Of a stretch of DNA of 64,000 nucleotides, positions 9 to 43,029 are shown piece after piece (the first letter of the stretch is position 1; the number at the start of each line of letters is the position of its first letter). The DNA is taken from the IMG/VR virus record IMGVR_UViG_3300025162_000019, positions 74,826 through 138,825 of that record; one strand, 5' to 3'. The translations under genes were made by a program, and so were the position numbers. The notes under the pieces are model-generated. The model had not been told where the DNA came from and made no database searches. It saw only the letters and a program-made list of their open reading frames with translations. Source of the stretch: a virus (taxonomy: Duplodnaviria; Heunggongvirae; Uroviricota; Caudoviricetes).

Positions 9-434
9 TTGAGTGAATGGGATAAAGAAGAAAAGTCAATCAGGGATTCTATATCTCCTTTAGTTCCCAACCTTGGTAAAATGGTTATTAAAGAGATTGT
101 TGCAGAAGCCGCATATTGGAGAAAAGCAAACGCAATTCATTCTTGGTTTGTTGAAAATGTTCAGGATGGAAAAGATGAGTGCGTTGAACATTATGTAGGC
201 CGAGAACAATTAAAGGAACTGATTGAAACTTGTAAGATGGTTTTGGCAGACCGTGACAATCCAATATCCAGTAAAGCAGAAAAACTATTACCTACACAAT
301 CTGGTTTTTTCTTTGGCGATACTGAATATGATGAATACTATTTTCAAGATTTGCAGGACACGATTGACCAGTTGGAACCTCTTTTAACAGAAGAATATAA
401 GAACTGGGAGTTTTATTATCGTTCAAGTTGGTAA
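9..434 (+). CDS. hypothetical protein (TTG start in track; reading frame is open to window start, may be 5' partial)
   Basis: 141 aa ORF; frame open upstream to position 1; no recognisable motif. Confidence 0.4.
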   Translation: MSEWDKEEKSIRDSISPLVPNLGKMVIKEIVAEAAYWRKANAIHSWFVENVQDGKDECVEHYVGREQLKELIETCKMVLADRDNPISSKAEKLLPTQSGFFFGDTEYDEYYFQDLQDTIDQLEPLLTEEYKNWEFYYRSSW

Positions 435-527
435 AAAGGGTGGTTCATATCAAGAGTACTCCTAAACTCCAACGATAACAGCCATTATATTAGTTAGTTC
501 CCCCCTTTAACTATATAGACACCCTGT

Positions 528-570
528 AATCCTGACCAATAGGAAGGTCTTTCTACAGGGTGTTTCCTTT
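528..570 (+). terminator. possible hairpin terminator after first ORF
   Basis: inverted repeat ACACCCTGTA ... TACAGGGTGT (10 bp stem) followed by TTCCTTT. Confidence 0.3.
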
Positions 571-599
571 GCGTTAAAAAATACTTTTAAGGATAGATT

Positions 600-1193
600 A
601 TGGCTATGAAAGAAACTGGAAAAGCTGAATATAGAAGAAGAAATGAAGGATTTTATGAAAAGTATTGCAATGGTAAAGGTATTGATATAGGGTGTTTTGA
701 TGAACCACTATTACCCGATTGCGATCTTTGGGACTTACAAATTAATCCATTTCAAGATGCAAAATATATGGATGGTATTGAAGATGAGACATATGATTTT
801 GTTTACTCAAGCCATTGCCTAGAGGATATTGACGACCCTTCCGTAGCATTAAAAAATTGGTATCGGATACTTAAAAGGGGTGGGTATCTTATACTTTTTC
901 TTCCGCATAGAGATTTGTTTGAGCACGTCCATATCCTACCTTCGCCATGTAATTCAGATCATAAACATTATTTTCTTATAGACAAGGATGAACAACCAGA
1001 TACATTAGGCATTATCCCACTTATCTCTAATACATTAACTGACTATGATTTATTATATGTTAAAAAGTGTGAAGACGGCCACAAACATACTTATATAGAA
1101 CGAGATAATGGTTTGTTCAGTATCATTTCTGAGGGTGAATATTCTATTGAACTTGTACTAAAGAAGGGTAATGACGCAATATATTATAATTAA
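600..1193 (+). CDS. class I SAM-dependent methyltransferase
   Basis: motif I GIDIGCF, post-I YDFVYSSHCLEDI, LKRGGYLIL; RBS AAGGA upstream. Confidence 0.6.
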   Translation: MAMKETGKAEYRRRNEGFYEKYCNGKGIDIGCFDEPLLPDCDLWDLQINPFQDAKYMDGIEDETYDFVYSSHCLEDIDDPSVALKNWYRILKRGGYLILFLPHRDLFEHVHILPSPCNSDHKHYFLIDKDEQPDTLGIIPLISNTLTDYDLLYVKKCEDGHKHTYIERDNGLFSIISEGEYSIELVLKKGNDAIYYN

Positions 1194-1201
1194 GTTTTTC
1201 C

Positions 1202-1230
1202 TTGACACAAAACAAACTTTGTGGTAGTAT
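1202..1230 (+). promoter_or_regulatory. sigma-70-type promoter
   Basis: TTGACA-N17-TAGTAT with TG at -14; nearly identical copies at 2753 and 4733. Confidence 0.6.
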
Positions 1231-1261
1231 AAGAGAAAAACCGCAAAGAAAGGTATATACC

Positions 1262-1867
1262 ATGTCTGAAACGACAAAGAAAAAAGGTGGTGTTCAACTT
1301 AATGGGTCTGCATCTACTGATTTATCCAGAGAATTAGACGATAATGCATTCGAGGCATATATAAGAATATGTTTTAAATATGATGGTGAGAATGGTATTT
1401 TAGCAGAAAAAAACTTATCAAAGAAAATTATGACAGAAAATGGTTTAACAAAGCAAATGTCATCCGATGGTGGTATGGTGTGGAAAGATGATATTTTAAG
1501 AATAGTTCTTGAATCTAAGACACAAGGAACAAAAGGTAATGCACATGAAAGGTGGTGTGATAATCATACTATCGCATGTAGATTAAATAACGATGTTATG
1601 TATATTACACTTTGTAGTGGTGAAGGTTATAAAAAGGGTAATGGAAGTTATAGATTTGCACTACGACAAATGGAAAGTGAAGCTAGAATAGAAAAAGGAA
1701 TTAAACTTATTAAGATGAATGAAACTGGGCAATCTTATCGTCATAAAGAATTTAATATTCTTTATGATAAGGGGCAATCTTGGTTTTATAAAGATTATTA
1801 TACTGTTGAAGATATTTATGACATTATGGAACAAGCAATACAAAAATTAATTAATGAGGAGAAATAA
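1262..1867 (+). CDS. hypothetical protein immediately upstream of Dam-like MTase (candidate cognate nuclease or regulator)
   Basis: ATG at 1262 downstream of promoter 1202-1230 and RBS AAAGG; stop abuts start of MTase gene. Confidence 0.4.
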   Translation: MSETTKKKGGVQLNGSASTDLSRELDDNAFEAYIRICFKYDGENGILAEKNLSKKIMTENGLTKQMSSDGGMVWKDDILRIVLESKTQGTKGNAHERWCDNHTIACRLNNDVMYITLCSGEGYKKGNGSYRFALRQMESEARIEKGIKLIKMNETGQSYRHKEFNILYDKGQSWFYKDYYTVEDIYDIMEQAIQKLINEEK

Positions 1868-2746
1868 ATGAAACCACTCTATATGTGGGCTGGTGGTAAG
1901 AATAGAATGATTCCAAAATATAAGGTTCAGCCGGGTATCCCTTTATACGGATATGATACCTATGTTGAACCTTTTTTTGGTGGTGGCGCAGTAGCCATCT
2001 ATGTCTACGAAAATAACCCGACTATTAAAAGATTTGTGATCAATGATATAAGTACTGAACTGATGGGAATATACCATGCTATAAAGAATGATGTAAACAA
2101 CTTCTTAGAATTTATGTATGTTATGGAAAACAAGTATATGCCCCTTGATAAACCTGATAGAAAAAAATTCTATTATAAACTCCGAAGTGAGTATATGAAG
2201 GACTATCAAAAATGGTCTAAAACAGAGGAATCAGCGGCACTTTATTTTTTAATGAAAACTGGATTTAATGGTATTTGGCAAACTATGAAAGAAAGTGATG
2301 GTAGATTTGCCACACCCTCTGGCCTACTGAATCAGAAATCAGTAGTTTTTGATTCAAATAATGTTCTGGAATGGTATAAATTTCTACAAAAAGTTGATAT
2401 ATATAGTGAAGATTGGTTAGAATGTGCATCAGGAGTTGGGGGTAAATCTTTCTTCTTTTGTGACCCACCTTACAGAAACTCCTTTACCTCTTATGGCCAG
2501 ACCTTTACAGATGATGACCAAAAAAGATGTATTGAATTTTGTAAGGAACAGGACAAAAAAGGTAATCTTGTAATGTACTGTAACAGGGACTTTGACGATG
2601 ATTTTTATACCAAAAACAAAGGTGATTTAGATATATCCTATTATGATGTGACATATACTGCTGGACGGAGAAAGCAAGAAAAAATGGCAAACGGTGACAC
2701 AAACTATACTGCCAAACCAGCCAGAGAGATACTTCTATATAATTAA
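1868..2746 (+). CDS. dam: DNA N6-adenine methyltransferase, Dam-like (alpha class)
   Basis: FFGGGAV SAM-binding motif, catalytic DPPY motif, WAGGK N-terminal motif; RBS GAGGAG. Confidence 0.75.
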   Translation: MKPLYMWAGGKNRMIPKYKVQPGIPLYGYDTYVEPFFGGGAVAIYVYENNPTIKRFVINDISTELMGIYHAIKNDVNNFLEFMYVMENKYMPLDKPDRKKFYYKLRSEYMKDYQKWSKTEESAALYFLMKTGFNGIWQTMKESDGRFATPSGLLNQKSVVFDSNNVLEWYKFLQKVDIYSEDWLECASGVGGKSFFFCDPPYRNSFTSYGQTFTDDDQKRCIEFCKEQDKKGNLVMYCNRDFDDDFYTKNKGDLDISYYDVTYTAGRRKQEKMANGDTNYTAKPAREILLYN

Positions 2747-2752
2747 TTTCCC

Positions 2753-2781
2753 TTGACACAAAACAAACTTTGTGGTAGTAT
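2753..2781 (+). promoter_or_regulatory. sigma-70-type promoter
   Basis: TTGACA-N17-TAGTAT, identical to promoter at 1202. Confidence 0.6.
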
Positions 2782-2806
2782 AAGAGAAAAAACAGGAGAA
2801 CAAACA

Positions 2807-2926
2807 ATGACTTTACTTATTGCTTTATTGATTATGAATCACATGGGTATTACTGGTATTGGGTCTTATATGTCTGTTGTATTTCTTTGGATAATTCATA
2901 TTATATTTCATACAACTAAGAAATAG
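2807..2926 (+). CDS. small hydrophobic peptide (39 aa)
   Basis: ATG 7 nt after RBS ACAGGAG; sequence MTLLIALLIMNHMGITGIG... single TM. Confidence 0.25.
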   Translation: MTLLIALLIMNHMGITGIGSYMSVVFLWIIHIIFHTTKK

Positions 2927-2933
2927 GTGATGT

Positions 2934-3050
2934 ATGGAAACAAAAATCTTACTGGAAATGATTATGTTTTCTGCCATTATAGCTGGTATAGGGTTTGGAT
3001 GCTTTGTTACTTACTGGTTAATCAAAACCTTCTTTGGTAGTGATGAATAA
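2934..3050 (+). CDS. small hydrophobic peptide (38 aa)
   Basis: METKILLEMIMFSAIIAGIGFGCFVTYWLIKTFFGSDE; RBS-like AGGTGA upstream. Confidence 0.25.
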   Translation: METKILLEMIMFSAIIAGIGFGCFVTYWLIKTFFGSDE

Positions 3051-3083
3051 CTAACCCCTTGAAATCATTCACAATCTTTTTAC

Positions 3084-3112
3084 TTGACGTAAACTGAACT
3101 TTATGTTATAAT
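3084..3112 (+). promoter_or_regulatory. sigma-70-type promoter
   Basis: TTGACG-N17-TATAAT. Confidence 0.55.
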
Positions 3113-3139
3113 GTTTTTTAGAGAGTGAGGAAAAACGAT

Positions 3140-3931
3140 ATGACTTTAGTGAAAAGAGAAAACCTATATAAGTATCTGGTAATGATTGTTCATCCTGACC
3201 GTAATCCTAATGACCCCTTGGCCACTAAGAAAACACAGGACGTAAACTTCAATAAGAGTAACCCTGATGTACTGATTGCTTTGGCAAAGGCTTGGAATCT
3301 ACCTATTGCTATTGATGGAAATTCACCCTATACCAGTACACCTGACCCGCGGACTGCCTCAACCAGAAACCCCTTTGAAGGTCGGTCTAATACCGGACGT
3401 TCCAACTTTGATAATTTTCGGGATATGTTTAATCAGACCGCACAAAATGGTTCAAACAATACTTTCAGACCTTCTATCATGGACATTATCTATATCCGTT
3501 CTATGGGTGATGCCTATGTTTTAACGGTAGACCCTATCACGACAGGAAAATATGCTGGCGGCATTAAATATAGTATCTATTCTTCTTTGAAGAATCAGTT
3601 CTATTCCTACAAGACTACCAGAGGAACCATTGCTGGTGTAGATAGACGTATTGGAACCTTTGACAGAACCGAATTGAAAAGACTTTCCGATATGTACCTT
3701 GAAAAGTTCGGTTCAAGAGTAAATAAGAATGATGTTCAGCCCTCTGACATTCGGAGTCAATTTGCCAAGGTTGGTTTGTTTCAGAATTTGATGTATAGAC
3801 GGACTAAGAGTGTTAGAATTGTGGGTTGGTCTGGCGTATGGGAAGTAGAAAAAACTACCGAGAAGTGTGTATATATCAACTATTATGGAACCCCTACCAG
3901 AAAGTCTATTGACAAGGTTCGGGCAATATAG
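3140..3931 (+). CDS. J-domain (DnaJ N-terminal-like) protein with long C-terminal extension
   Basis: N-terminus LYKYLVMIVHPDRNPND carries the HPD tripeptide in J-domain context; ATG 3140 preferred over GTG 3125. Confidence 0.5.
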   Translation: MTLVKRENLYKYLVMIVHPDRNPNDPLATKKTQDVNFNKSNPDVLIALAKAWNLPIAIDGNSPYTSTPDPRTASTRNPFEGRSNTGRSNFDNFRDMFNQTAQNGSNNTFRPSIMDIIYIRSMGDAYVLTVDPITTGKYAGGIKYSIYSSLKNQFYSYKTTRGTIAGVDRRIGTFDRTELKRLSDMYLEKFGSRVNKNDVQPSDIRSQFAKVGLFQNLMYRRTKSVRIVGWSGVWEVEKTTEKCVYINYYGTPTRKSIDKVRAI

Positions 3932-3949
3932 TAAATAAAGGGTCTGATG

Positions 3950-3982
3950 GAAAGATAGTCTACCAGACCCTTTAACAGTTTT
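3950..3982 (+). terminator. rho-independent terminator
   Basis: GGGTCTG ... CAGACCC stem followed by TTTAACAGTTTT. Confidence 0.5.
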
Positions 3983-3983
3983 A

Positions 3984-4014
3984 CCGATAACCGACCCTAA
4001 CCTATTGGAATTAC
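3984..4014 (+). repeat. conserved intergenic element CCGATAACCG-N-TAAC-CTATTGGAATTAC
   Basis: one of 7 or more related copies (also 3046-3080, 4963-4995, 5992-6027, 6674-6710, 9657-9690, 10695-10727). Confidence 0.5.
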
Positions 4015-4026
4015 AGGAGTAAATAA

Positions 4027-4140
4027 ATGGATAGTCTATTATGGCGTTTTATAATGGTGGGAACAATACTGTCATTCCTGTATACTGCTTATGTTCTATA
4101 CAACGGTTCTGGCCTAGTGTTCTATAACCCCTTGTTTTAA
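4027..4140 (+). CDS. small membrane peptide (37 aa)
   Basis: RBS CAGGAG 8 nt upstream; MDSLLWRFIMVGTILSFLYTAYVLY... Confidence 0.25.
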   Translation: MDSLLWRFIMVGTILSFLYTAYVLYNGSGLVFYNPLF

Positions 4141-4156
4141 CTCAGAAACTTTTTAC

Positions 4157-4185
4157 TTGACATTTTTCCCTTTCTGGTATACAAT
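4157..4185 (+). promoter_or_regulatory. sigma-70-type promoter
   Basis: TTGACA-N17-TACAAT. Confidence 0.5.
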
Positions 4186-4214
4186 AAATCAAAAACATAA
4201 AGGAGATAACAAAT

Positions 4215-4553
4215 ATGGGTGCTGCAAGCTTCACTAATGAATGGGTAGGTAAAGGTACTCCCCAAGAGGCTTTCCGTGAACTTTGGGAACAGGCTGTTGT
4301 AGAGTATGGCCGTGACCCCTATAATGGAACCATTTCTACGACCTCTCTAGTAAAGGTTCTGGAACTCCCGCCCAGAAAGAACCTTGACAAGTTCATAGAC
4401 GACCTTTGGGCAACAAACAAAATCGGTAAGTGGGAAACCATTTGTATAGAGGTCAAGGGAACTATTCTGAAAAACCTTCTTCTACACAAATATGGTGTAC
4501 AGAGTAGAAAAGGGTATAGAGGGTACATATTTGTTGGTCTGGCAGCTTCTTAA
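4215..4553 (+). CDS. hypothetical protein
   Basis: 112 aa ORF with RBS AAAGGAG. Confidence 0.45.
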   Translation: MGAASFTNEWVGKGTPQEAFRELWEQAVVEYGRDPYNGTISTTSLVKVLELPPRKNLDKFIDDLWATNKIGKWETICIEVKGTILKNLLLHKYGVQSRKGYRGYIFVGLAAS

Positions 4554-4573
4554 TAGAAAGGAGAAGATGAACA

Positions 4574-4729
4574 ATGAAGTTGAGGGGGCAGTTGATTAAG
4601 ACGGAAACTTATATCAATACATATACAGACACTATAACAGACACTTACAGCTCTGGTGATAAGGTACTGTATGAATACAACAAACACGGAAACCTAGTGA
4701 ACAAAGAAGTCAGACCCCGCTACAAATAA
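4574..4729 (+). CDS. small hypothetical protein (51 aa)
   Basis: RBS AAGGAG upstream; Thr/Tyr-rich. Confidence 0.3.
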   Translation: MKLRGQLIKTETYINTYTDTITDTYSSGDKVLYEYNKHGNLVNKEVRPRYK

Positions 4730-4732
4730 GTC

Positions 4733-4761
4733 TTGACAGAAATCTTCTTCTATGGTAGTAT
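4733..4761 (+). promoter_or_regulatory. sigma-70-type promoter
   Basis: TTGACA-N17-TAGTAT. Confidence 0.6.
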
Positions 4762-4787
4762 AAGAGAAAAAACAGGAGAACACGATA

Positions 4788-4955
4788 ATGTGTATATTTC
4801 ATAAGTGGGGAAAGTGGTCAGAGGTCAAAGAAGAAGTATGGGAAAGACGGAAATCTTTAGGTGGTATTGAAACGGACAGATATACCTATGTACGCCGTTG
4901 CCAGGAACGGTATTGTGAGAAGTGTGGTAAACACTCCCAGAGATACCTTGACTAA
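4788..4955 (+). CDS. small Cys-rich protein (55 aa)
   Basis: RBS ACAGGAG; CQERYCEKCGK zinc-ribbon-like. Confidence 0.3.
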   Translation: MCIFHKWGKWSEVKEEVWERRKSLGGIETDRYTYVRRCQERYCEKCGKHSQRYLD

Positions 4956-5016
4956 TAGAAGGGATAACCGACCCTAACTCATTGAAATCATTACCAAAAA
5001 TAATCCAAAATATGTC

Positions 5017-5045
5017 TTGACAAAATTGACTTTAGATGATACAAT
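5017..5045 (+). promoter_or_regulatory. sigma-70-type promoter
   Basis: TTGACA-N17-TACAAT. Confidence 0.55.
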
Positions 5046-5078
5046 AAATTAAAAACAACGAAAAAGGAGATAAAAATC

Positions 5079-5903
5079 ATGACCTCAGCAAATCCGTTTT
5101 TTGACATTCGTAAAGAGTTCGTTCTTACTGAGTCTGGTATCCCTATTGATAACAAGGTAGCCCTGATCAATACCGAGAACAACAAGCCGGTGGGTCTGGT
5201 GTCTAAGGGTTATAAGGTTACGACCAACAGGGAAGTGGCAGACATCTTTGAAGTAGCATTGGCAGAGGCTTTCGGTAGTGTTGAAACCCACAAGGTTGTT
5301 GACCACCTTGACGCCACAGGTAAGAAATGGAAACGCCAAATCATTCTGGGCGGGGATCAGTTTAACTTTGATGTTACGAAACGCGGTGACATCGTGGGTA
5401 TCATGTTGACCGAGTTCAACGGGTATGATGGTAAAACCGCTGTAGGGTACGACATTAGTGGTTATCGTTACGCCTGTACAAATGGTCTGGTGACGGGTAT
5501 CAAGAAGTTGTTCGCTGAGTCTTTCGCCCATGTATCTGATAATGTTACCATGTTAGTTGAGTCCTTCAATAGTAAGTTCGACCTGTTCAATCAGTCTATC
5601 GATGTATGGTCTAAATGGTCTGAACTACCCTATACTCAGAACGACTTTACGGAGTTTTTGAAAAGTCGTGAGTATCTGTCCGAGAAGGCACGGACTGCCA
5701 TTGTTGATCAGTATGTTCCGATTATGAACAAGTACAAAGAGTCCGATGAAACCAAGTGGCACGCTTTTAATGTACTGACAGAGATTGGTACTCACAACAC
5801 AAAAGCCCGGAACGGTTCCAATGTATTCTCCAATGGGTTTAAAACGATGGAAAAAGTGGCCTATGACTTCTATGTTGAGAACCAGTTGTTGATCGCAGCC
5901 TAA
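5079..5903 (+). CDS. hypothetical protein, possibly DUF932-like phage/plasmid protein
   Basis: 274 aa; RBS AAAGGAG; family assignment from memory only. Confidence 0.35.
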   Translation: MTSANPFFDIRKEFVLTESGIPIDNKVALINTENNKPVGLVSKGYKVTTNREVADIFEVALAEAFGSVETHKVVDHLDATGKKWKRQIILGGDQFNFDVTKRGDIVGIMLTEFNGYDGKTAVGYDISGYRYACTNGLVTGIKKLFAESFAHVSDNVTMLVESFNSKFDLFNQSIDVWSKWSELPYTQNDFTEFLKSREYLSEKARTAIVDQYVPIMNKYKESDETKWHAFNVLTEIGTHNTKARNGSNVFSNGFKTMEKVAYDFYVENQLLIAA

Positions 5904-5911
5904 ACCCCTGT

Positions 5912-5968
5912 CCCTGTAGTATTCATTAGACCCCTTTATTGGTGGGTAGTCTAATGAATACTACAGGG
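5912..5968 (+). terminator. long perfect hairpin (20-bp stem), terminator or RNase III-type processing site
   Basis: CCCTGTAGTATTCATTAGAC ... GTCTAATGAATACTACAGGG exact inverted repeat directly after stop of 5079-5903. Confidence 0.45.
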
Positions 5969-6037
5969 ACTTCCCTTATTCAGACCATTCTCCGATAACC
6001 GGTGCTAACCCATTGTTATCATTACATTTCTTTTTGC

Positions 6038-6066
6038 TTGACACAAACATAAATATATGGTAGAAT
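6038..6066 (+). promoter_or_regulatory. sigma-70-type promoter
   Basis: TTGACA-N17-TAGAAT with TG. Confidence 0.55.
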
Positions 6067-6095
6067 GTACTTGAAAGTGAGGGTGAATAAACGCA

Positions 6096-6266
6096 ATGAA
6101 AAATGAAATGACGATTGATGTAATAAACGCCGCATACCGGATTAGAAGGATGATCGTTCAGGGAATGACAAGAAACGATGCTTTCCATGAAGTTGCAAAT
6201 AAAATGGATTTGACAGTCAAAGAAATGGATCAAGTTGACTATTTATTGGATGAGGATTCAAAATGA
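6096..6266 (+). CDS. small hypothetical protein (56 aa)
   Basis: leader GAGGGTGAATAAAC-N-ATG shared with the ORF at 8535. Confidence 0.3.
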   Translation: MKNEMTIDVINAAYRIRRMIVQGMTRNDAFHEVANKMDLTVKEMDQVDYLLDEDSK

Positions 6267-6407
6267 AAATCATGACCATTGTAATAAAAAAAGAGGATTT
6301 ACCGAAGATGAGAATACCCCTACCCACTAAGACGGGCGGGTTCCATACCACTAAAAAGGGTAAGAAGGGTTATAACAGAACCACCTTTAAGAAGGGAGAA
6401 TAAGACA

Positions 6408-6602
6408 ATGAGAGAACCTAACTTCGGTTGGTCATATCCGCCCGGTTGTTCTGGGCCACCGGAAGATGTAGAAGATTATCCTTTGATTGATAACCTTTAT
6501 GAAATCCTTATAGATGAGCACCTTAGCGATCCTGTTATTGATAAGGTTCTTGATCTGGTACGTAAGACCCTTGACGAGTATGAACAGAAACGCTGGAAGT
6601 AG
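6408..6602 (+). CDS. hypothetical protein
   Basis: 64 aa ORF, RBS AAGGGAG. Confidence 0.35.
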   Translation: MREPNFGWSYPPGCSGPPEDVEDYPLIDNLYEILIDEHLSDPVIDKVLDLVRKTLDEYEQKRWK

Positions 6603-6673
6603 GATATGAAGTCCCTGCCAGATGAATCTATATTTAATGAAGAAGCAGCTGACGCACGATGGAATGACATATA

Positions 6674-20382: not shown

Positions 20383-21264
20383 ATGATAGAACTTAAATAT
20401 AGTTTAAATGATATTAAGGAATATGTTGAAAGTTTTAGATATAAACTTTTATCTACTGAATATATCGGTATTATGTCAAAATTAAAATTAAAATGCCCTG
20501 AAGGCCACATATTTGAAACAAGATATAATAATTTTAAAAACATTAATAGTAGATGCCCTGAATGTAAGGGTAATAGAAAACATACATTAGAAAAAGTTAA
20601 AGAACATATTGAAAGTTTTGATTATAAACTATTATCAACAGAATATAGAAATGCCGATACAAAACTTGAATTAAAATGTCCTTCTGGCCATATTTTTGAT
20701 ATAAAGTATCGTAGCTTTCAACAAGGGCAAAGATGTATGGAATGCTCAGGTAAAAGAAAACATACATTAGATGAAGTTAAAGAATATATTGGGGTGTATG
20801 ATTATAAAGTTTTATCTACTGAATATATTAATTCATATACAAAATTAAAGTTGCAATGCCCTGAAGGTCATATATTTAATATGATGTATCGTAATTTTCA
20901 ACAAGGAGTTAGATGTCCTGAATGTTGTAATAAAAAAGGATGGTCTAAACCAGAAAAGGAAATAGCAAAATATGTTAAAACAATATATTCCGACAAAGTT
21001 ATAGAAAATGATAGAACACAAATTAAAAACTATTGGACAAGTGCAGGTTTAGAATTAGATATATGGCTACCTGAAGTAAAAAAAGCAATAGAGTTTAATG
21101 GTTCTTATTGGCATTCAAATAACAAAACAAAATGGTATGATGAAATGAAGAAAAGGCAGTGTATGAAAAATGAAATTGATTTATTAGTTATAAATGAACA
21201 AGATTGGTATGATGATAAAATGTGCCAACTAAATAAAATAAATGTTTTTATAGGAGAAATGTAA
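20383..21264 (+). CDS. homing-endonuclease-like protein: 3 zinc-ribbon-like repeats + Vsr/DUF559-like nuclease domain
   Basis: 3x (YKLLSTEY...KCPEGH...RCPEC); C-terminus KPEKEIAKYVK...ENDRTQ...LELDIWLPE..AIEFNGSYWH. Confidence 0.6.
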   Translation: MIELKYSLNDIKEYVESFRYKLLSTEYIGIMSKLKLKCPEGHIFETRYNNFKNINSRCPECKGNRKHTLEKVKEHIESFDYKLLSTEYRNADTKLELKCPSGHIFDIKYRSFQQGQRCMECSGKRKHTLDEVKEYIGVYDYKVLSTEYINSYTKLKLQCPEGHIFNMMYRNFQQGVRCPECCNKKGWSKPEKEIAKYVKTIYSDKVIENDRTQIKNYWTSAGLELDIWLPEVKKAIEFNGSYWHSNNKTKWYDEMKKRQCMKNEIDLLVINEQDWYDDKMCQLNKINVFIGEM

Positions 21265-23425: not shown

Positions 23426-23456
23426 CAAGTAACTGGTTATGTGGTATAAATATAGG

Positions 23457-24332
23457 ATGAGTAAAAAATATACAATAGAAGAAATAAAACTATACATTGA
23501 AAGTTTTGGATATACATTATTATCTACTGAATATAATAAAGCACTTTCTAAATTAGACCTTCAATGTCCTGAAGGTCATTTATTTAAAATGAGATATAAT
23601 AATTTTAAGAATCAAAGTCAACGATGCTCTATTTGTTTTGGTACACCTAAGAAAACAATAGAAGAAGTTAGAAATTATATTGAAAGTTTTAATTATAACC
23701 TTCTTTCTACTGTGTATATAAATAATAAAGAAAAATTAGTATTGCAATGCCCTGAAGGTCATATAATAAAAATACGATTGGATAGTTTTAGTCATGGAAC
23801 TAGATGTTCAATATGTTCTGGTAATGATAAAAATTCTATTGAAAAAATTAAAAAGCATATAGAAAGTTTTGATTATAAACTATTATCAACAGAGTATATA
23901 AATAATAAATCAAAAATAAAATTACAATGTAGTAAAAATCATACATATCAAGCTTCTTATCATAGATTTCAACAAGGTGATAGATGCCCTTTATGTGCAA
24001 ATAGTGAAGGTAAATCAAAACCCGAAAAAGAAATTGTTGAACATATTAAAATAAATTACTATAAAGATATAATAGAAAATGATAGAACACAAGTTAAAAA
24101 CTTTTGGTCTAATCGTAATTTGGAGCTGGATATATTTTTACCTGATATATCTAAAGCAATAGAATTTAATGGTATATATTGGCATAAAAATAATAATGTA
24201 AAATGGAAAGATGAAATGAAAAGAAAACAATGTATTCAAAAAGGTATTGAGTTATTAGTTATACAAGAGCAAGATTGGTATAATGATAAGTTATGTTGTT
24301 TAAATAAAATAAATGAGTTAATAGGTGCTTAA
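23457..24332 (+). CDS. homing-endonuclease-like protein (3 repeats + Vsr/DUF559-like domain)
   Basis: ATG 23457 downstream of TTTACA-N17-TATAAA promoter; same architecture. Confidence 0.6.
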   Translation: MSKKYTIEEIKLYIESFGYTLLSTEYNKALSKLDLQCPEGHLFKMRYNNFKNQSQRCSICFGTPKKTIEEVRNYIESFNYNLLSTVYINNKEKLVLQCPEGHIIKIRLDSFSHGTRCSICSGNDKNSIEKIKKHIESFDYKLLSTEYINNKSKIKLQCSKNHTYQASYHRFQQGDRCPLCANSEGKSKPEKEIVEHIKINYYKDIIENDRTQVKNFWSNRNLELDIFLPDISKAIEFNGIYWHKNNNVKWKDEMKRKQCIQKGIELLVIQEQDWYNDKLCCLNKINELIGA

Positions 24333-27046: not shown

Positions 27047-27919
27047 ATGATTGCATTATATTGCCATAATGATATGGACGGCAAATGCTCTGGTGCTATT
27101 GCATATAGAGAACTTAGTAAGCAATACGGTATAAATGAAATACTAATGTATGTTGTTGATTATGGAGATAAATTACCTACATTTAAGGCTGAAGATAGCT
27201 TAAAGGCTGTATACATAATGGATTTTAGTTTTGAACCTGAATATATGGATTATCTGATTTCATTAGTAGGTAGAGATAATGTTATATGGATTGATCATCA
27301 TATTTCAGCTATTAAAAAGTTAAATGATTATAGAGATTTGAATGGACTTAGAAGTATTATTATGTCTGGTTGTATGTTGACATTTAGATATTTTTATCCA
27401 GATAAGTTTGCTCCTATGGTTATAGAGCTGGTTGAAGATTTTGATCTGTACATTTATAGATACGGTGATTTAACTAAAGGGTTTCAAGAATGGTCTAACT
27501 ATAATGATACTGAGCCAACTAATATTATTTGGGATCGGTTGCTTACATCTAACTTTGACCAACTAGAAGAACTATCACAAGAAGGTCTAAGATTTAGAGA
27601 AATTAGATTATGGAAGTTAGAGAAGGACATTGAAAGATTAGCATATATTGATGAGATTGATGGCCATAAGTGTTTGAAGATGAACCTTACACAACTGGAT
27701 AGTATTTCAGATGCAGGTGATTTTGTTATAAATATATTAGGGTATGATTTATTTTGGGCATATTCTGATTTTGTAATCAATGGTAAGTTACGAAGGACAA
27801 ATCAGTTACGAAGTCATGTAATTGATGTATCTAAACTTGCAGATAAATTTGGCGGGGGTGGGCACGCTCGTGCAGCAGGGTTTCTGTCTGATATAGGAGA
27901 AAGGAAAGGTGAATGTTGA
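27047..27919 (+). CDS. DHH-DHHA1 family phosphoesterase (NrnA-like)
   Basis: HNDMDGKCSGAI (motif I/II), IDHHIS (DHH), GGGHARAAGF (DHHA1). Confidence 0.6.
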   Translation: MIALYCHNDMDGKCSGAIAYRELSKQYGINEILMYVVDYGDKLPTFKAEDSLKAVYIMDFSFEPEYMDYLISLVGRDNVIWIDHHISAIKKLNDYRDLNGLRSIIMSGCMLTFRYFYPDKFAPMVIELVEDFDLYIYRYGDLTKGFQEWSNYNDTEPTNIIWDRLLTSNFDQLEELSQEGLRFREIRLWKLEKDIERLAYIDEIDGHKCLKMNLTQLDSISDAGDFVINILGYDLFWAYSDFVINGKLRRTNQLRSHVIDVSKLADKFGGGGHARAAGFLSDIGERKGEC

Positions 27920-28511: not shown

Positions 28512-29399
28512 ATGAAAAAATTAAATTATATTGATGTTAAAAATAATATAGAAAATTTTGGATATAAGTTATTATCTGAAAAATATATAAATGCTTTGAC
28601 TAAACTAGAAATGCAATGTCCTGAAGGTCACGATTTTGAGATAAAATATAATAATTTTCAACAAGGTCAAAGATGCTCTATTTGTTTTGGTACGCCTAAG
28701 AAAATATTAAATGAAATTAAAGAGTATATAGAAAGTTTTAATTATAAATTACTTTCTACTGAATATAAAGATAATAGAACTAAACTAGAATTACAATGTT
28801 CTGAAGGCCATATATTTAAAATGGCATATGGTAGTTTTAAAAATCAAAATTATAGATGCCCGGAATGTGCTGGTAATAGAAAATTTATAATAGAAGATAT
28901 TAAAGAATATATTGAAAGTTTTGACTATAAACTTTTATCAACTGAATATGTAAATATATTTTCCAAGTTAAAAATACAATGTTTAAAAGGTCATATATAC
29001 GCTGTAACGTATAATAATTTTAAGAATCATAATAGAAGATGCCCAGAATGTTCAAATAGTAAAATGTTTTCTAAACCAGAAAAGGAAATTGCTGAATATG
29101 TTAAAGAGAATTATACTGGTGATGTTGTAGAAAATGACAGAACACAAATAGTAAATTATTGGACAGGTGTTGGATTAGAACTTGATGTTTGGATGCCAGA
29201 AGCAAGAAAAGCAATAGAATTTAATGGTTCTTATTGGCATAATAATGAAAATGCTAAATGGCATGATGAAATAAAAAAGAAACAATGCATACAAAAGAAA
29301 ATAGATTTATTAGTTATACAAGAGCAGGATTGGTATAATGATAAGGTATGTTGTTTAAATAAAATAAATAATTTAGTTTACAATACGGTTGGAATATAG
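28512..29399 (+). CDS. homing-endonuclease-like protein (3 repeats + Vsr/DUF559-like domain)
   Basis: own TTTACA-N17-TATAAT promoter at 28478; conserved ENDRTQ...LELDVWMPE...AIEFNGSYWH. Confidence 0.6.
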   Translation: MKKLNYIDVKNNIENFGYKLLSEKYINALTKLEMQCPEGHDFEIKYNNFQQGQRCSICFGTPKKILNEIKEYIESFNYKLLSTEYKDNRTKLELQCSEGHIFKMAYGSFKNQNYRCPECAGNRKFIIEDIKEYIESFDYKLLSTEYVNIFSKLKIQCLKGHIYAVTYNNFKNHNRRCPECSNSKMFSKPEKEIAEYVKENYTGDVVENDRTQIVNYWTGVGLELDVWMPEARKAIEFNGSYWHNNENAKWHDEIKKKQCIQKKIDLLVIQEQDWYNDKVCCLNKINNLVYNTVGI

Positions 29400-30367: not shown

Positions 30368-30394
30368 AAAAAGTAGAAAAGGAGAAAGAAAGTA

Positions 30395-31328
30395 ATGGCA
30401 AGTGGTAAAGTAAAGTGGTTTAATGACAGTAAGGGTTAATAAAGAATAAGATAAATAATCAAAGCATGAAATGGCAAAATAAATATAATATTGATATTGA
30501 AGAAGTACATACTAAAAACATGGAAGGATATAGTTTAACAGACTTATCTTCCATGTTTAATGTACCTAAAACAACATTGAATAGATATTTAAAGAAAGCA
30601 GGATATAGAATACTAATGAATAGGAAGATTTTACCATATTCATATTATATCACAGTAACTGAAAAGGAAATTGATTACAATTATAAGAGAAATAATACTG
30701 GACGGTGGAAAAGAAATTTGATATTTCATTACGGCCATAAATGTATTATTTGTGAATATGATAAAATTGTTGAAGCACATCATATTAAACCTCTTTCAGA
30801 TGGTGGTAAAACAAGTGTTGAAAATGGTATTTTATTATGCCCGAATTGTCATGCAGAAGTTCATGCTGGATTATTAAACTTAACCGAGGCCCTTATAAAA
30901 TTGGGTGAATTGCTGGAACATTCTTTAGAGAACAATCAGCAGCCAAGTCATGAAAGTAGGTATATACCGAGAGTCATGGAAGGTTCAACGACTAATTCCC
31001 GAGCGAAAGCAGTAATGGAAACAAGAGCGCCCAAATCTCGTAGTAATAGAATAGGAAAAGATATGTATATTTTAAATAATCCTTCCTTACGAGATATGAT
31101 ATAGTCTGATCTGCATATAAAAAATAAGTTGCAGAGTTATGGGATAAAGAGCCCATAAGATAACAAATGTTCGGCTTCATTGAGAAGGCAGATGGTGGTG
31201 ATGTGTTTGTTCATTTCAGTTCAATTCAAGGTGATGGATTCAAGTCACTTCAAGAAGGTGCGAGTGTAAGTTTTGATATTGAACAGGGTGCTAAAGGCCC
31301 ATCAGCAGTTAATGTAAGAACTATCTAA
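30395..31328 (+). CDS. cold-shock protein (CspA-like) gene split by an intron: exon 1 30395-30436, exon 2 31170-31328
   Basis: exon 1 [14 protein letters not shown] + exon 2 [52 protein letters not shown] gives an intact 66-aa Csp; RBS AAAGGAG. Confidence 0.55.
30437..31169 (+). mobile_element. group I (IA-like) intron carrying an HNH homing endonuclease ORF
   Basis: exon 1 ends in T, intron ends in G; R-like element GGTTCAACGACTAA (about 30975) and S-like element GATATGATATAGTC (about 31093) can form P7; HNH ORF inside. Confidence 0.5.
30466..31104 (+). CDS. intron-encoded HNH homing endonuclease with N-terminal HTH-like region
   Basis: CIICEY...[13 protein letters not shown]...[10 protein letters not shown]. 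Confidence 0.65.
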   Translation: MKWQNKYNIDIEEVHTKNMEGYSLTDLSSMFNVPKTTLNRYLKKAGYRILMNRKILPYSYYITVTEKEIDYNYKRNNTGRWKRNLIFHYGHKCIICEYDKIVEAHHIKPLSDGGKTSVENGILLCPNCHAEVHAGLLNLTEALIKLGELLEHSLENNQQPSHESRYIPRVMEGSTTNSRAKAVMETRAPKSRSNRIGKDMYILNNPSLRDMI

Positions 31329-33590: not shown

Positions 33591-34469
33591 ATGAATAAAA
33601 AATATACTATAGAAAATATTAAAAAAATAATGTTAGATTTTAGTTATGAACTATTATCTAATGAATATAAAAATAATACATCAAAACTTAAAATAAAATG
33701 TGATAACAACCATATTTTTATTACTGATATGAAGCATTTTAAAAGAGGTCATAAATGCCCTGAATGTTCTAAAAATAAAAAACACACTATTGAAAATATT
33801 AAAGAATATATAGAAAGTCTTAACTATAAACTTTTATCATCAGAATACATTAATACTCTTACAAAATTAACATTACAATGCCCTGAAGGCCATATTTATT
33901 TATCCACATATAGTAATTTTCAACAAGGAAAAAGATGTCCTGTTTGTTTTGGAACACCTAAGAAAACATTAGAAAATGTTAGTAAATATATTGAAATGTT
34001 TGGATATAAAGTTCTATCAACTGAATATATAACTAATAATACAAAATTAAAATTATCATGCCCCAATAATCATACTTTTAAGATGAGTTATAGTAGTTTT
34101 CATACAGGACAAAGATGCCCATTATGCTCTTATATAAATAGTGGTTCAATACCTGAAAAGGAAATAGCTGAGTATACTAAAGCAATATATTCTGGTGAAG
34201 TTATAGAAAATGATAGAACACAAGTTAAAAACTATTTTACAAACTATCCATTGGAACTAGACATATATATACCAAAATCATCTAAAGCAATTGAATTTAA
34301 CGGAAAATATTGGCATAATAATGACTATATAAAGTGGAAAGATGAAATGAAACGAAAACAATGTATGAAAAGAGGAATTGATTTATTAGTGATAGATGAA
34401 AAGGAATGGTGTAAAAATAAGGATCAGATTTTTAAAAATATTAAGATATTTTTAAAGGAGATTAGATAA
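33591..34469 (+). CDS. homing-endonuclease-like protein (3 repeats + Vsr/DUF559-like domain)
   Basis: same architecture; most diverged C-terminus (LELDIYIPKSSKAIEFNGKYWH). Confidence 0.6.
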   Translation: MNKKYTIENIKKIMLDFSYELLSNEYKNNTSKLKIKCDNNHIFITDMKHFKRGHKCPECSKNKKHTIENIKEYIESLNYKLLSSEYINTLTKLTLQCPEGHIYLSTYSNFQQGKRCPVCFGTPKKTLENVSKYIEMFGYKVLSTEYITNNTKLKLSCPNNHTFKMSYSSFHTGQRCPLCSYINSGSIPEKEIAEYTKAIYSGEVIENDRTQVKNYFTNYPLELDIYIPKSSKAIEFNGKYWHNNDYIKWKDEMKRKQCMKRGIDLLVIDEKEWCKNKDQIFKNIKIFLKEIR

Positions 34470-40327: not shown

Positions 40328-41206
40328 ATGATTGGTAAAAAATTAAATTATATAGAAGTTAAACAATATATTGAAAGTTTTGATTATAAACTTTTATCAA
40401 CAAATTATATAAATGCTTTAACAAAATTAGAATTACAATGTCCGAAAGATCATATATATTTTGGTGTATATGGTAATTTTCAACAAGGTATTAGATGCCC
40501 GGAATGCTCAGGTCTAAAAAGGAAAACTTTAAGAGGCGTAAAAGAATATATTGAAAGTTTTGGGTATGAATTATTATCCACTGAATATAAAAATAGTAAA
40601 GAAAAATTAGAATTACAATGTCCTAAAAAACATATATTTAAAATGAGTTATGTTTGTTTTCAAAGAGGGCAAAGATGCCCCGAATGCGATAAATCTAAAA
40701 AACTTACATTAAATAAAGTTAAACAATATATAGAAAATTTTGAATATAAACTTTTATCAACAGAGTATGTAAATAGTAAAACTAAATTAGAACTACAATG
40801 CCCTGAAAGTCATATTTATAATGTAATATACAATTCATTTCAGCAAGGTCAAAGATGCCCTAGTTGTGCTTCAGTTAAAGGATGGTCTAAACCTGAAAAG
40901 GAAATTGCTGAATATATTAAACAAAACTATATTGGTGAAGTTATGGAAAATGATAGAACACAAGTAAAGAACTATTGGTCGGGTAAAAATTTAGAATTAG
41001 ACATATTTTTACCTGAATTAAATAAAGCTGTTGAATATAATGGTGAGTACTGGCATAATAATGATAAATCAAGATGGTATGATGAAATGAAAAAGAAGCA
41101 ATGTAAACAAAAAAATATAAATTTATTGGTTATACAAGAACAAGATTGGTATGATAATAAACCATACTGTCTTAACAAAATAAATAACTTCATTGTAAAT
41201 TTATGA
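40328..41206 (+). CDS. homing-endonuclease-like protein (3 repeats + Vsr/DUF559-like domain)
   Basis: same architecture. Confidence 0.6.
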   Translation: MIGKKLNYIEVKQYIESFDYKLLSTNYINALTKLELQCPKDHIYFGVYGNFQQGIRCPECSGLKRKTLRGVKEYIESFGYELLSTEYKNSKEKLELQCPKKHIFKMSYVCFQRGQRCPECDKSKKLTLNKVKQYIENFEYKLLSTEYVNSKTKLELQCPESHIYNVIYNSFQQGQRCPSCASVKGWSKPEKEIAEYIKQNYIGEVMENDRTQVKNYWSGKNLELDIFLPELNKAVEYNGEYWHNNDKSRWYDEMKKKQCKQKNINLLVIQEQDWYDNKPYCLNKINNFIVNL

Positions 41207-42143: not shown

Positions 42144-42159
42144 AAAGGAAATGTGTGTA

Positions 42160-43029
42160 ATGACAAAATGCAATCTATTTGATATGAACAATCTGGCGGT
42201 TCGCTGTTTCTTTAGCAAGGACATAGAGGCAGATTCTCCCCACCCAAATATCCAACTATGGAAGTATTTCGTAATAGATTCAGTATACAACTCACTATTT
42301 AAGGATAAAACTACTGAAATTGTGCTTGCTGTTGATGATAGAAGGTCATGGAGAAAGAATGTATTTCCAAGATATAAAGAAGGGAGAAAGGGTAAAAGAG
42401 AAGTAAGTAAAGTAGATTGGAATATTTTTTATACAGAATATGATAGTCTATTAGAAGAGATTAGAAATAACCTACCATTCAAAGTGATCCATGTAACTGA
42501 AGCAGAAGCCGATGATATTATTGGTGTTATTGCTCTATATGGAACAAAAGATAAGTATACTGTTGTGAGTAATGATGAAGATTACTTACAACTTTCATCT
42601 AGCAAAGTAAAAATCTATAATCCAATGAAAATGACATATGTTGAATGCCAAGACACTGAGAAATTTATCATAGAAAAGAGCCTATTGGGCCAAAAGAAAG
42701 ATGATATATTTAATATTAAAACTCCTGTTGATTGGCCTATAGACAAGAGAAAGCCAGGCTTTGGTGATGCAGCACTAGCTAAAGTTATGGAATACGGTTG
42801 GGAAAAGTGGTTAAAAGATAACAAACTTGAAGATAGATATGAACTGAATAGAACTCTTATTGATTTTAAGAGAATACCAGTATATCTAAGAACAGGTATC
42901 TTAAATTGTTATGATAGTTATGTTTTACCTGATCCCAGTAATTGTTATGGATTTTTCAAGTCTAATAATTTTAGAGGATACCTTGAAAATTTTCATAATG
43001 TAGAAAATAATCTTTTAAAAATGTATTAG
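42160..43029 (+). CDS. rnh: RNase H / 5'-3' flap exonuclease (T4 rnh-like)
   Basis: N-terminal NLFDMNNLAVR, EAEADDIIGV, C-terminal YVLPDPSNCYGFF resemble T4 RNase H blocks. Confidence 0.65.
   Translation: MTKCNLFDMNNLAVRCFFSKDIEADSPHPNIQLWKYFVIDSVYNSLFKDKTTEIVLAVDDRRSWRKNVFPRYKEGRKGKREVSKVDWNIFYTEYDSLLEEIRNNLPFKVIHVTEAEADDIIGVIALYGTKDKYTVVSNDEDYLQLSSSKVKIYNPMKMTYVECQDTEKFIIEKSLLGQKKDDIFNIKTPVDWPIDKRKPGFGDAALAKVMEYGWEKWLKDNKLEDRYELNRTLIDFKRIPVYLRTGILNCYDSYVLPDPSNCYGFFKSNNFRGYLENFHNVENNLLKMY

Follow-up and report, generated by a model that had tools for sequence, protein, structure and literature searches.

Among described phage group I introns, those of the T4 genes td, nrdB and nrdD (sunY), which come with the endonucleases I-TevI, I-TevII and I-TevIII, carry a subgroup IA-type extra helix between P7 and the 3' strand of P3 (P3'), and introns that encode HNH endonucleases have been reported in the DNA polymerase genes of the Bacillus phages SPO1/SP82 (I-HmuI/II) and Bastille (I-BasI) as well as in nrdE of Staphylococcus phage Twort (PMC3984707). 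In collaborative homing, a free-standing endonuclease gene lies beside an intron without an open reading frame (ORF), as in psbA of cyanophage S-PM2 with F-CphI and in the gene for DNA polymerase of T3/T7-like phages (PMC3984707, PMC6083498), and group I introns of fungal mitochondria include cases in which the ORF sits in the P1 loop or reaches the core (PMC3984707 Fig. 2b; PMC4964425, PMC7902536). Here we describe a locus at positions 30395-31328 of a 64,000-nucleotide stretch of Caudoviricetes DNA (IMG/VR record IMGVR_UViG_3300025162_000019, positions 74,826 to 138,825; hereafter, the whole stretch is called the window), in which a cold-shock protein gene (csp) of an uncultured, AT-rich phage is split by a group I intron that encodes an HNH endonuclease. 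Our comparisons of sequences indicate that the intron is real and very probably active and mobile, and we put the probability that it is a mobile group I intron with the anatomy and mechanism proposed below at about 90%.

Like the T4 introns, the csp intron combines the extra helix between P7 and P3' with a stop codon soon past the 5' splice site, an intron-borne endonuclease gene and a predicted interplay of splicing and translation. The T4 hosts are genes of nucleotide metabolism, whereas the host here is csp, and the encoded enzyme is a McrA-like HNH protein, in contrast to the GIY-YIG enzyme of the T4 comparison. The T4 endonuclease ORFs occupy peripheral loops with little or no overlap with the ribozyme core; the ORF at this locus, by contrast, starts within the P1 loop and then overlaps the ribozyme for 216 nt, reaching from the guide sequence into P7, and P2 is missing. 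With the introns of SPO1/SP82, Bastille and Twort, the element shares its membership of the phage group I introns, a homing (nicking) endonuclease of the HNH family and conserved target codons, but it differs from them in host gene, in domain order (an N-terminal helix-turn-helix (HTH), then HNH) and in ORF placement, and no sequence relation between their enzymes and the window HNH protein was detectable by tblastn at E 1e-8. The collaborative-homing layout, from which the window differs in having its endonuclease gene inside the intron, is shared by two related loci described below (L017 and L066). The fungal ORFs are mostly of the LAGLIDADG or GIY-YIG type and organellar, whereas the window ORF is HNH and belongs to a phage.

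What is new at this locus is the host gene csp together with the unusually extensive overlap of ORF and ribozyme; the mechanism is ordinary. An earlier, sequence-only reading of the window had called an intron in csp unusual, and in the full-text literature we found no earlier report of an intron in a cold-shock gene; the words 'phage', 'csp' and 'cold' are also absent from the main text of the 2025 group I intron database paper. As for the overlap, the main text of PMC3984707 contains no phage example of an ORF running into the core, and no wider search for one was made. An overlap that extends from the guide through P7, with a stop codon in the S element across the family, is unusually extensive. 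Because ORFs that overlap the core and ORFs in the P1 loop are both documented, the arrangement represents an extreme case of a known thing and introduces no new principle.

Ribozyme structure and splice sites

The Rfam group I intron model RF00028 matched positions 30827-31128 with 60.8 bits against a gathering threshold of 50 (E 5.7e-13, model positions 1-253). This was the sole Rfam match within the window, and homologous csp introns at eight other loci passed the same threshold on their own, with 51-75 bits. Judged by these scores and by the covariation described below, the match to a group I intron is far beyond chance. The sequence-only reading had proposed that a phage csp gene is split here by a group I intron encoding an HNH protein and had named a search with the Rfam model as one way to check the proposal; the result bears it out.

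An alignment of the 3' 330 nt of the introns brought out the internal guide sequence, whose P1 part (30889-30896) lies 452 nt into the intron; P1 closes a loop of 446 nt. The P1 part of the guide, GCCCUUAU, pairs with the last 8 nt of exon 1 (30429-30436, GUAAGGGU), which form the 5' strand of P1 and place U30436 in a U.G wobble at the 5' splice site. The P10 part, CCGAG, pairs with the first 5 nt of exon 2 (UUCGG, 31170-31174), and GCCCUUAU is followed by AAAA and then by P3. Apart from GCCCUU at 30889, the intron contains no other G-initiated complement of AAGGGU.

Covariation was assessed on an alignment of 15 mini-introns, each comprising 10 nt from the end of exon 1, the initial 6 nt of the intron and the stretch from the guide through position +8 of exon 2, with an artificial GAAA linker standing in for the P1 loop. 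The structure scored on this alignment was drawn by hand and consisted of P1, P10, P3-P6, P6a, P6b, P7, P7.1, P7.1a, P8, P8a, P9 and P9.1. Standard pairs were observed in 92.9% of the cells of this 80-pair structure, a percentage biased toward the structure, which was partly derived from the same sequences, in comparison to 35-41% when the partners were slid by 1-3 columns; such controls have recognized limits for related sequences, but the slid control preserves the relatedness and collapses all the same. Changes on both sides, which are unaffected by this bias, occurred at 46 of the 80 pairs against a shuffle mean of 30.0, and none of 500 shuffles reached the observed values. Compensatory pairs were found in ten helices, including both P1 and P10 (Table 1), with the reservation that the 15 sequences are related and the compensatory cell counts consequently overstate how many of the events were independent.

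The U.G wobble at the 5' splice site was present in 15 of 15 sequences, and where the exon sequences differ the guides differ with them. At L063 the exon reads AAAGGU and the guide GCCUUU, and at L062 an exon reading AAGGCU is accompanied by the guide GGUCUU. On the 3' side, the exon 2 start UUUGG of L054 and L016 is matched by CCAAA or CCAAU, and the starts UACGG or UAUGG of L059, L060, L064 and L065 are matched by guides ending in UA. Because P1 and P10 change along with the exons in this manner, both splice sites are fixed, which upholds the 733-nt insert with a U before it and a G at its end as it had first been read; a preceding U (U30436 in the window) and a terminal G (G31169) were found in all 16 introns.

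The R-like element GGTTCAACGACTAA (about 30982-30995) and the S-like element GATATGATATAGTC (31094-31107), which the sequence-only reading had named as able to form P7, do form it, through GACUA/UAGUC plus one covarying A-U/G-C pair across the bulge. P2 is absent, and the core from P3 to P9.1 is intact, including the P3/P7 pseudoknot. One or more extra helices (P7.1/P7.2 or P7.1/P7.1a) between the 5' strand of P7 and the 3' strand of P3 are a mark of subgroup IA; with one covarying hairpin (30996-31020) at this place, the intron is IA-like by its predicted structure. The minimum-free-energy fold of 30884-31177 recovered P4, P5, P6, P6a, P6b, P8, P9, P9.1 and P10.

Table 1. Features of the split csp locus in window coordinates, with paired fractions and compensatory pairs counted on the alignment of 15 mini-introns
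Feature	Position	Strand	Basis or content	Paired fraction	Compensatory pairs
csp Shine-Dalgarno AAGGAG	30380-30385	+	read from sequence; 9 nt ahead of start codon		
csp exon 1, 14 codons	30395-30436	+	sequence, Pfam CSD, covariation, coding signature		
Group I intron, 733 nt	30437-31169	+	Rfam RF00028; edges from P1/P10 covariation		
HNH homing-endonuclease ORF, 212 aa	30466-31104	+	Pfam HNH, homologues, AlphaFold2		
Internal guide sequence	30884-30896	+	CCGAG 30884-30888 (P10); GCCCUUAU 30889-30896 (P1)	P10 90.7%	P1 3; P10 2
P3, 5' strand	30901-30907	+	Rfam alignment, pair counts	93%	4
P4	30911-30916/30936-30941	+	Rfam alignment, pair counts	100%	
P5	30921-30924/30929-30932	+	Rfam alignment, pair counts	98%	4
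P6	30942-30944/30982-30984	+	Rfam alignment, pair counts		
P6a	30948-30952/30975-30979	+	Rfam alignment, pair counts	97%	5
P6b	30959-30961/30966-30968	+	Rfam alignment, pair counts		
P7, 5' strand	30988, 30990-30994	+	within R element	100%	1
P7.1 hairpin	30996-30999/31017-31020	+	invariant GC-GAAA-GC tip 31003-31010		5
P3, 3' strand (same pairs as the 5' strand)	31028-31034	+		93%	4
P8 hairpin	31035-31042/31088-31095	+	distal part variable	85%	6
P7, 3' strand (same pairs as the 5' strand)	31102-31107	+	inside S element GAUAUAGUC; pair counts	100%	1
P9	31111-31115/31130-31134	+		100%	2
P9.1	31137-31143/31152-31158	+		100%	7 (every pair)
Intron 3' tail GAUAACAAAUG	up to G31169	+	sequence; terminal G		
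csp exon 2, 52 codons plus stop (FGFIEK...VRTI)	31170-31328	+	sequence, Pfam CSD, coding signature		

The csp exons and the proposed mechanism

The two exons read as the sequence-only reading had described them, exon 1 being followed directly by an in-frame TAA (30437-30439), the first bases of the intron, and exon 2 ending at the stop codon 31326-31328. They join into a 66-aa cold-shock protein (Csp) that scored 102.6 bits against the Pfam cold-shock domain (CSD, PF00313), covering profile positions 2-65 of 66. This spliced Csp, with its full-length match to the profile, contains both KGFGFI (RNP1) and VFVHF (RNP2), and its best 120 database matches are uninterrupted Csps, mostly of 66 aa, with 74-85% identity at 95-100% coverage. 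The insertion point lies between the codons for Gly14 and Phe15, inside the nucleic-acid-binding motif K-G-F-G-F-I, which is the most conserved motif of the CSD. A conserved motif inside a gene is, as is well established, the usual type of target for homing endonucleases (PMC3984707).

Among 14 intron-containing csp genes, every exon 1 was preceded by a Shine-Dalgarno-like motif and had its ATG 13-17 codons before the splice site. Pairwise differences at codon positions 1, 2 and 3 amounted to 0.219, 0.270 and 0.391 in exon 1 and to 0.299, 0.290 and 0.624 in exon 2, so that third positions vary most, a pattern which indicates that both exons are selected as coding sequence. Selection on both of them makes sense only if the mRNA joins them.

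In the mechanism that we propose, a guanosine would attack after U30436, and the freed exon 1, held by P1, would then attack after G31169, positioned by P10. Ligation would yield AAG GGU/UUC GGC, with the slash marking the junction, and thereby the 66-aa Csp; the predicted ligated RNA junction is GACAGUAAGGGU/UUCGGCUUCAUU, and the predicted 30-mer across it is TTTAATGACAGTAAGGGT/TTCGGCTTCATT. On unspliced RNA, ribosomes coming from the csp Shine-Dalgarno would halt at the UAA directly past the splice site, and an in-frame stop soon after the 5' splice site is common in phage and bacterial introns (PMC3984707). The HNH gene, whose start lies 26 nt downstream of this UAA without an evident Shine-Dalgarno in front of it, might, speculatively, be translated by reinitiation from these csp-loaded ribosomes. 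In co-infecting phages, its product would nick or cut csp alleles that lack the intron, either at the insertion site or close by, and repair would copy the intron in, which constitutes homing. Because translation of the ORF must unfold the ribozyme, endonuclease translation and splicing would exclude each other on any one transcript.

The HNH gene and its overlap with the ribozyme

The HNH domain of the ORF is intact and scored 42.6 bits against Pfam PF01844, well over the cut-off of 21.4. The protein has an HTH-like N-domain at about aa 1-50, followed by an HNH/zinc domain at about aa 70-145, and its tail takes up aa 142-212; its best solved relative is McrA (6ghc, E 1.1e-6). In an AlphaFold2 model built from a 45-sequence alignment, the HTH-like domain was predicted with a predicted local distance difference test score (pLDDT) of 81-95, and the HNH domain with 72-89. 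Codons 1-141 sit in the P1 loop because the guide sequence comes only 452 nt into the intron; in this part, before the guide, codon-position differences are 0.359/0.261/0.532, which indicates that the N-terminal 141 codons are under clear purifying selection.

The guide sequence, P3, P4-P6, P7, P7.1 and P8 supply the remaining 71 codons (142-212), and the stop codon UAG (31102-31104) falls in the S element GAUAUAGUC, as part of P7's 3' strand. This arrangement recurs across the family. The distance from the intron start to the ORF start is 8-56 nt, or 5-53 nt when counted from the UAA where one is present. In 11 of 15 introns, the ORF runs to the same P7 UAG, which gives an overlap with the ribozyme of 171-243 nt (216 nt in the window). 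Over this overlap, the two remaining frames contain 3-11 stops. Loop lengths change in steps of three in all 15 sequences, L5 measuring 4, 10 or 19 nt and L6b 2, 5, 8, 11, 20 or 23 nt, and the distal part of P8 stays in frame in 11 of 15. Because the DNA loci were found via HNH-motif patterns and never via the tail, the open tail frame is more than a product of ascertainment. We infer that the sequence of the tail is dictated by the RNA and that selection only keeps its frame translatable.

The overlap could also amount to a built-in switch, in which each pre-mRNA would be either read through by reinitiating ribosomes that the csp Shine-Dalgarno had delivered to the UAA, giving endonuclease with the ribozyme unfolded, or folded and spliced, giving Csp, with feedback from Csp and a dual-coding tail. 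We regard this elaboration as unlikely. If it were true, Csp could in turn affect both the long-range P1 and the splicing of its own RNA, a feedback that is conceivable because Csp proteins melt RNA structure, and the Csp output of the phage would be set by temperature and translation state. The 71-codon tail would then represent genuine dual coding: its sequence would be set by the RNA, and an open frame would be all that selection maintains.

Homologous introns in other phage contigs

We found 47 homologues of the HNH protein in a large protein collection, mostly full-length, and the identical protein on 24 metagenomic contigs (the longest of 189 kb) that are evidently the same phage. The DNA around the distant homologues was fetched, and the spliced Csp served as tblastn query against all loci. 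Wherever a fetched locus had a close HNH homologue, its csp gene was split at KG/FGF or KG/YGF. Fifteen homologous introns at this codon boundary come from metagenomic phage contigs other than that of the window. This site is occupied in at least four gene neighbourhoods, the neighbours being gp32 and Band_7 in the window, PrkA, DUF444 and SpoVR in L011, a CCA-adding enzyme and RNA ligase in L013, and DNA polymerase A and DNMK (a nucleotide kinase) in L016. Occupation of the same site in unrelated neighbourhoods is what horizontal spread by homing predicts.

Several members of the family differ in the number of introns or in the arrangement of their endonuclease genes. L064 (116-396; 78.7 bits) and L065 (1-116) carry a second csp intron 17 nt upstream of the site after KG, within the Phe codon of W-F, which leaves a 17-nt micro-exon, UUAAUAAUAAAAAGGGU, between the two introns. 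In L017 and L066, only the upstream intron is present (82.7 and 69.4 bits); it has no ORF, a nearby guide sequence and a P2, and a separate gene for a 169-aa, tail-less HNH homologue abuts the start of csp (L017 2501-3303; L066 about 2142-2945), with an ATGA overlap in L017. We also considered reading a 98-aa ORF upstream of the HNH gene of L017 as the first csp exon, but that exon, MSNERLTGKVVW, in fact begins at the stop codon of the HNH gene. The KG/YGF intron of L018 (1697-2961) measures 1265 nt and contains two endonuclease genes, of which the HNH ORF comes first, with 183 codons from stop to stop, and a 209-aa LAGLIDADG ORF lies between P7 and P3', at the usual place of P7.1, and ends at the P7 UAG.

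Other features of these contigs were noted. The intron-bearing csp genes of L059 and L055 are surrounded by tRNA genes, at 594-664, 2274-2347, 3444-3517 and 3598-3669 in L059 and at 2254-2336, 3600-3683 and 4765-4838 in L055. L011, a 113-kb contig, has its PrkA/DUF444/SpoVR-like set at 24-6633 and a second HNH gene just upstream of csp, and its 855-aa SpoVR-like ORF is broken by a LAGLIDADG_3 domain, possibly an intein.

Beyond these contigs, no relative of the HNH protein was detected by tblastn at E 1e-8 in about 50,700 deposited phage records, and species-representative bacterial and archaeal genomes yielded just distant HNH motifs. The only similarity to turn up in cultured phages, a stretch of 101 nt in Flavobacterium phage FPSV-F12 (L084 2501-2601; MK764441.1 31504-31604), is 74% identical to the core from the guide to P7, and the similarity extends to 21 related FpV/FPSV records. 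It lies between genes for hypothetical proteins, is overlapped in this record by a small minus-strand hypothetical coding sequence, and several related records have no feature at this place. The stretch falls below the Rfam threshold and may be an unannotated or degenerate intron.

Alternative explanations

Several observations weigh against an active, mobile intron. The fold-energy z-score of the core (30884-31177) is modest, at -1.45, and the Rfam score of the window intron lies just about 11 bits over its threshold. Rfam's own placement of P1/P2 (30827-30880) is wrong, being mismatched and involving no exon, in contrast to the guide at 30884-30896, which pairs and co-varies with the exons. 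A P1 that has to form across a 446-nt loop, itself translated, is kinetically demanding. In the endonuclease gene, the tail shows codon-position differences of 0.297/0.303/0.304, which is no coding signature, and is predicted to be disordered (pLDDT 36-43 at residues of about 150-190). The open tail frame might provide a loosely constrained basic extension that aids DNA binding, or ribosomes running through it might hold the ribozyme unfolded. Finally, the nearest uninterrupted Csps are cellular, and an intron-less syntenic allele was not found among gp32 relatives, among Band_7 relatives or in a scan of IMG/VR for the exact junction, so that these searches gave no instance of the presence/absence polymorphism that classically marks homing.

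The missing allele, the lack of an evident Shine-Dalgarno before the HNH ORF, and a C-terminal third that is without codon-position bias, disordered in prediction and frameshifted in L059 and L063 would all fit an element that splices but is inherited vertically and immobile, its HNH gene decaying or kept for another role such as aiding splicing. We consider this explanation improbable, since 45 homologues at 40-66% identity keep the catalytic and zinc residues (C93, C96, H105, N120, C125, H129 and H133) without exception, the N-terminal 141 codons are under purifying selection, and the same csp site is occupied in unrelated gene neighbourhoods.

A further explanation is that the insertion is dead, either a degenerate intron or a plain landing of an HNH gene, and that csp is a pseudogene whose CSD pieces are remnants. 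Gene callers do annotate just a CSD fragment of 53-54 aa at these loci, which they obtain because start codons at the intron end are in frame with exon 2; these triplets may reflect chance, an RNA constraint close to the terminal G or a genuine start. A dead insertion is nonetheless very improbable, considering that the Shine-Dalgarno, start codon and frame of exon 1 are kept in 14 homologues, that both exons are biased toward third-position changes, that the compensatory changes in P1 and P10 follow the exon sequences, and that the core helices are all intact in an intron scoring above the Rfam threshold. Finally, expression of exon 2 alone from AUG 31167-31169, as a truncated CSD of 53 aa without splicing, is scarcely credible even though an in-frame AUG, UUG or GUG forms the last three bases of 12 of the 16 introns, as no Shine-Dalgarno lies ahead of it (gataacaaATG), the product would be without strand beta-1 and the K-G of KGFGFI, the other four introns end in CAG, AAG or AGG, and selection on exon 1 would be left unexplained.

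Implications of a probably mobile csp intron

If the element is a mobile group I intron, as we favour, csp joins the short list of phage genes that host group I introns, and its RNP1-coding stretch represents a hot spot where two insertion sites lie 17 nt from each other. The family would provide a natural series for the association of endonucleases with introns, from a free-standing endonuclease beside an ORF-less intron, through an intron-borne endonuclease, to an intron with two endonucleases, and it presents an unusually extensive, conserved protein frame over a ribozyme core. Because gene callers report a 53-aa CSD fragment and a "McrA-like" ORF, the family is mis-annotated in metagenomes. 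The accepted view of group I intron function is unchanged.

Phage context

The sequence-only reading had placed the locus in a T4-like context, and this part was not supported. Proteins of the window matched gp32, NrdD and primase, and the GC content is about 29%; megablast against cultured phages gave no match to the element, and the identity between the window NrdD and phage NrdDs does not exceed 31%. Because the phage is far from cultured phages, T4-like status is not established. A scan for sigma-70 promoters was uninformative, with 14 sites against 11.3 expected, and no terminators were found.

At least five paralogous genes of about 292 aa, with 46-61% mutual identity, recur every few kilobases (28512-29399, 20383-21264, 23439-24332, 33591-34469 and 40328-41206), and more distant copies lie at 1868-2746, 27047-27919 and 42151-43029. 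Their products combine repeated zinc-ribbon (CapR/DUF4379-like) modules with a C-terminal nuclease-like domain, and phrog_559, 'HNH endonuclease' (E 2.4e-57), is the best PHROG match. These genes resemble a swarm of free-standing homing endonucleases. In the viral contigs L004, L005 and L006 (7206-7575), the gene for a gp32 relative (44% identity) is followed, about 1.3 kb downstream, by a full-length tmRNA gene (RF00023, 124.9 bits).

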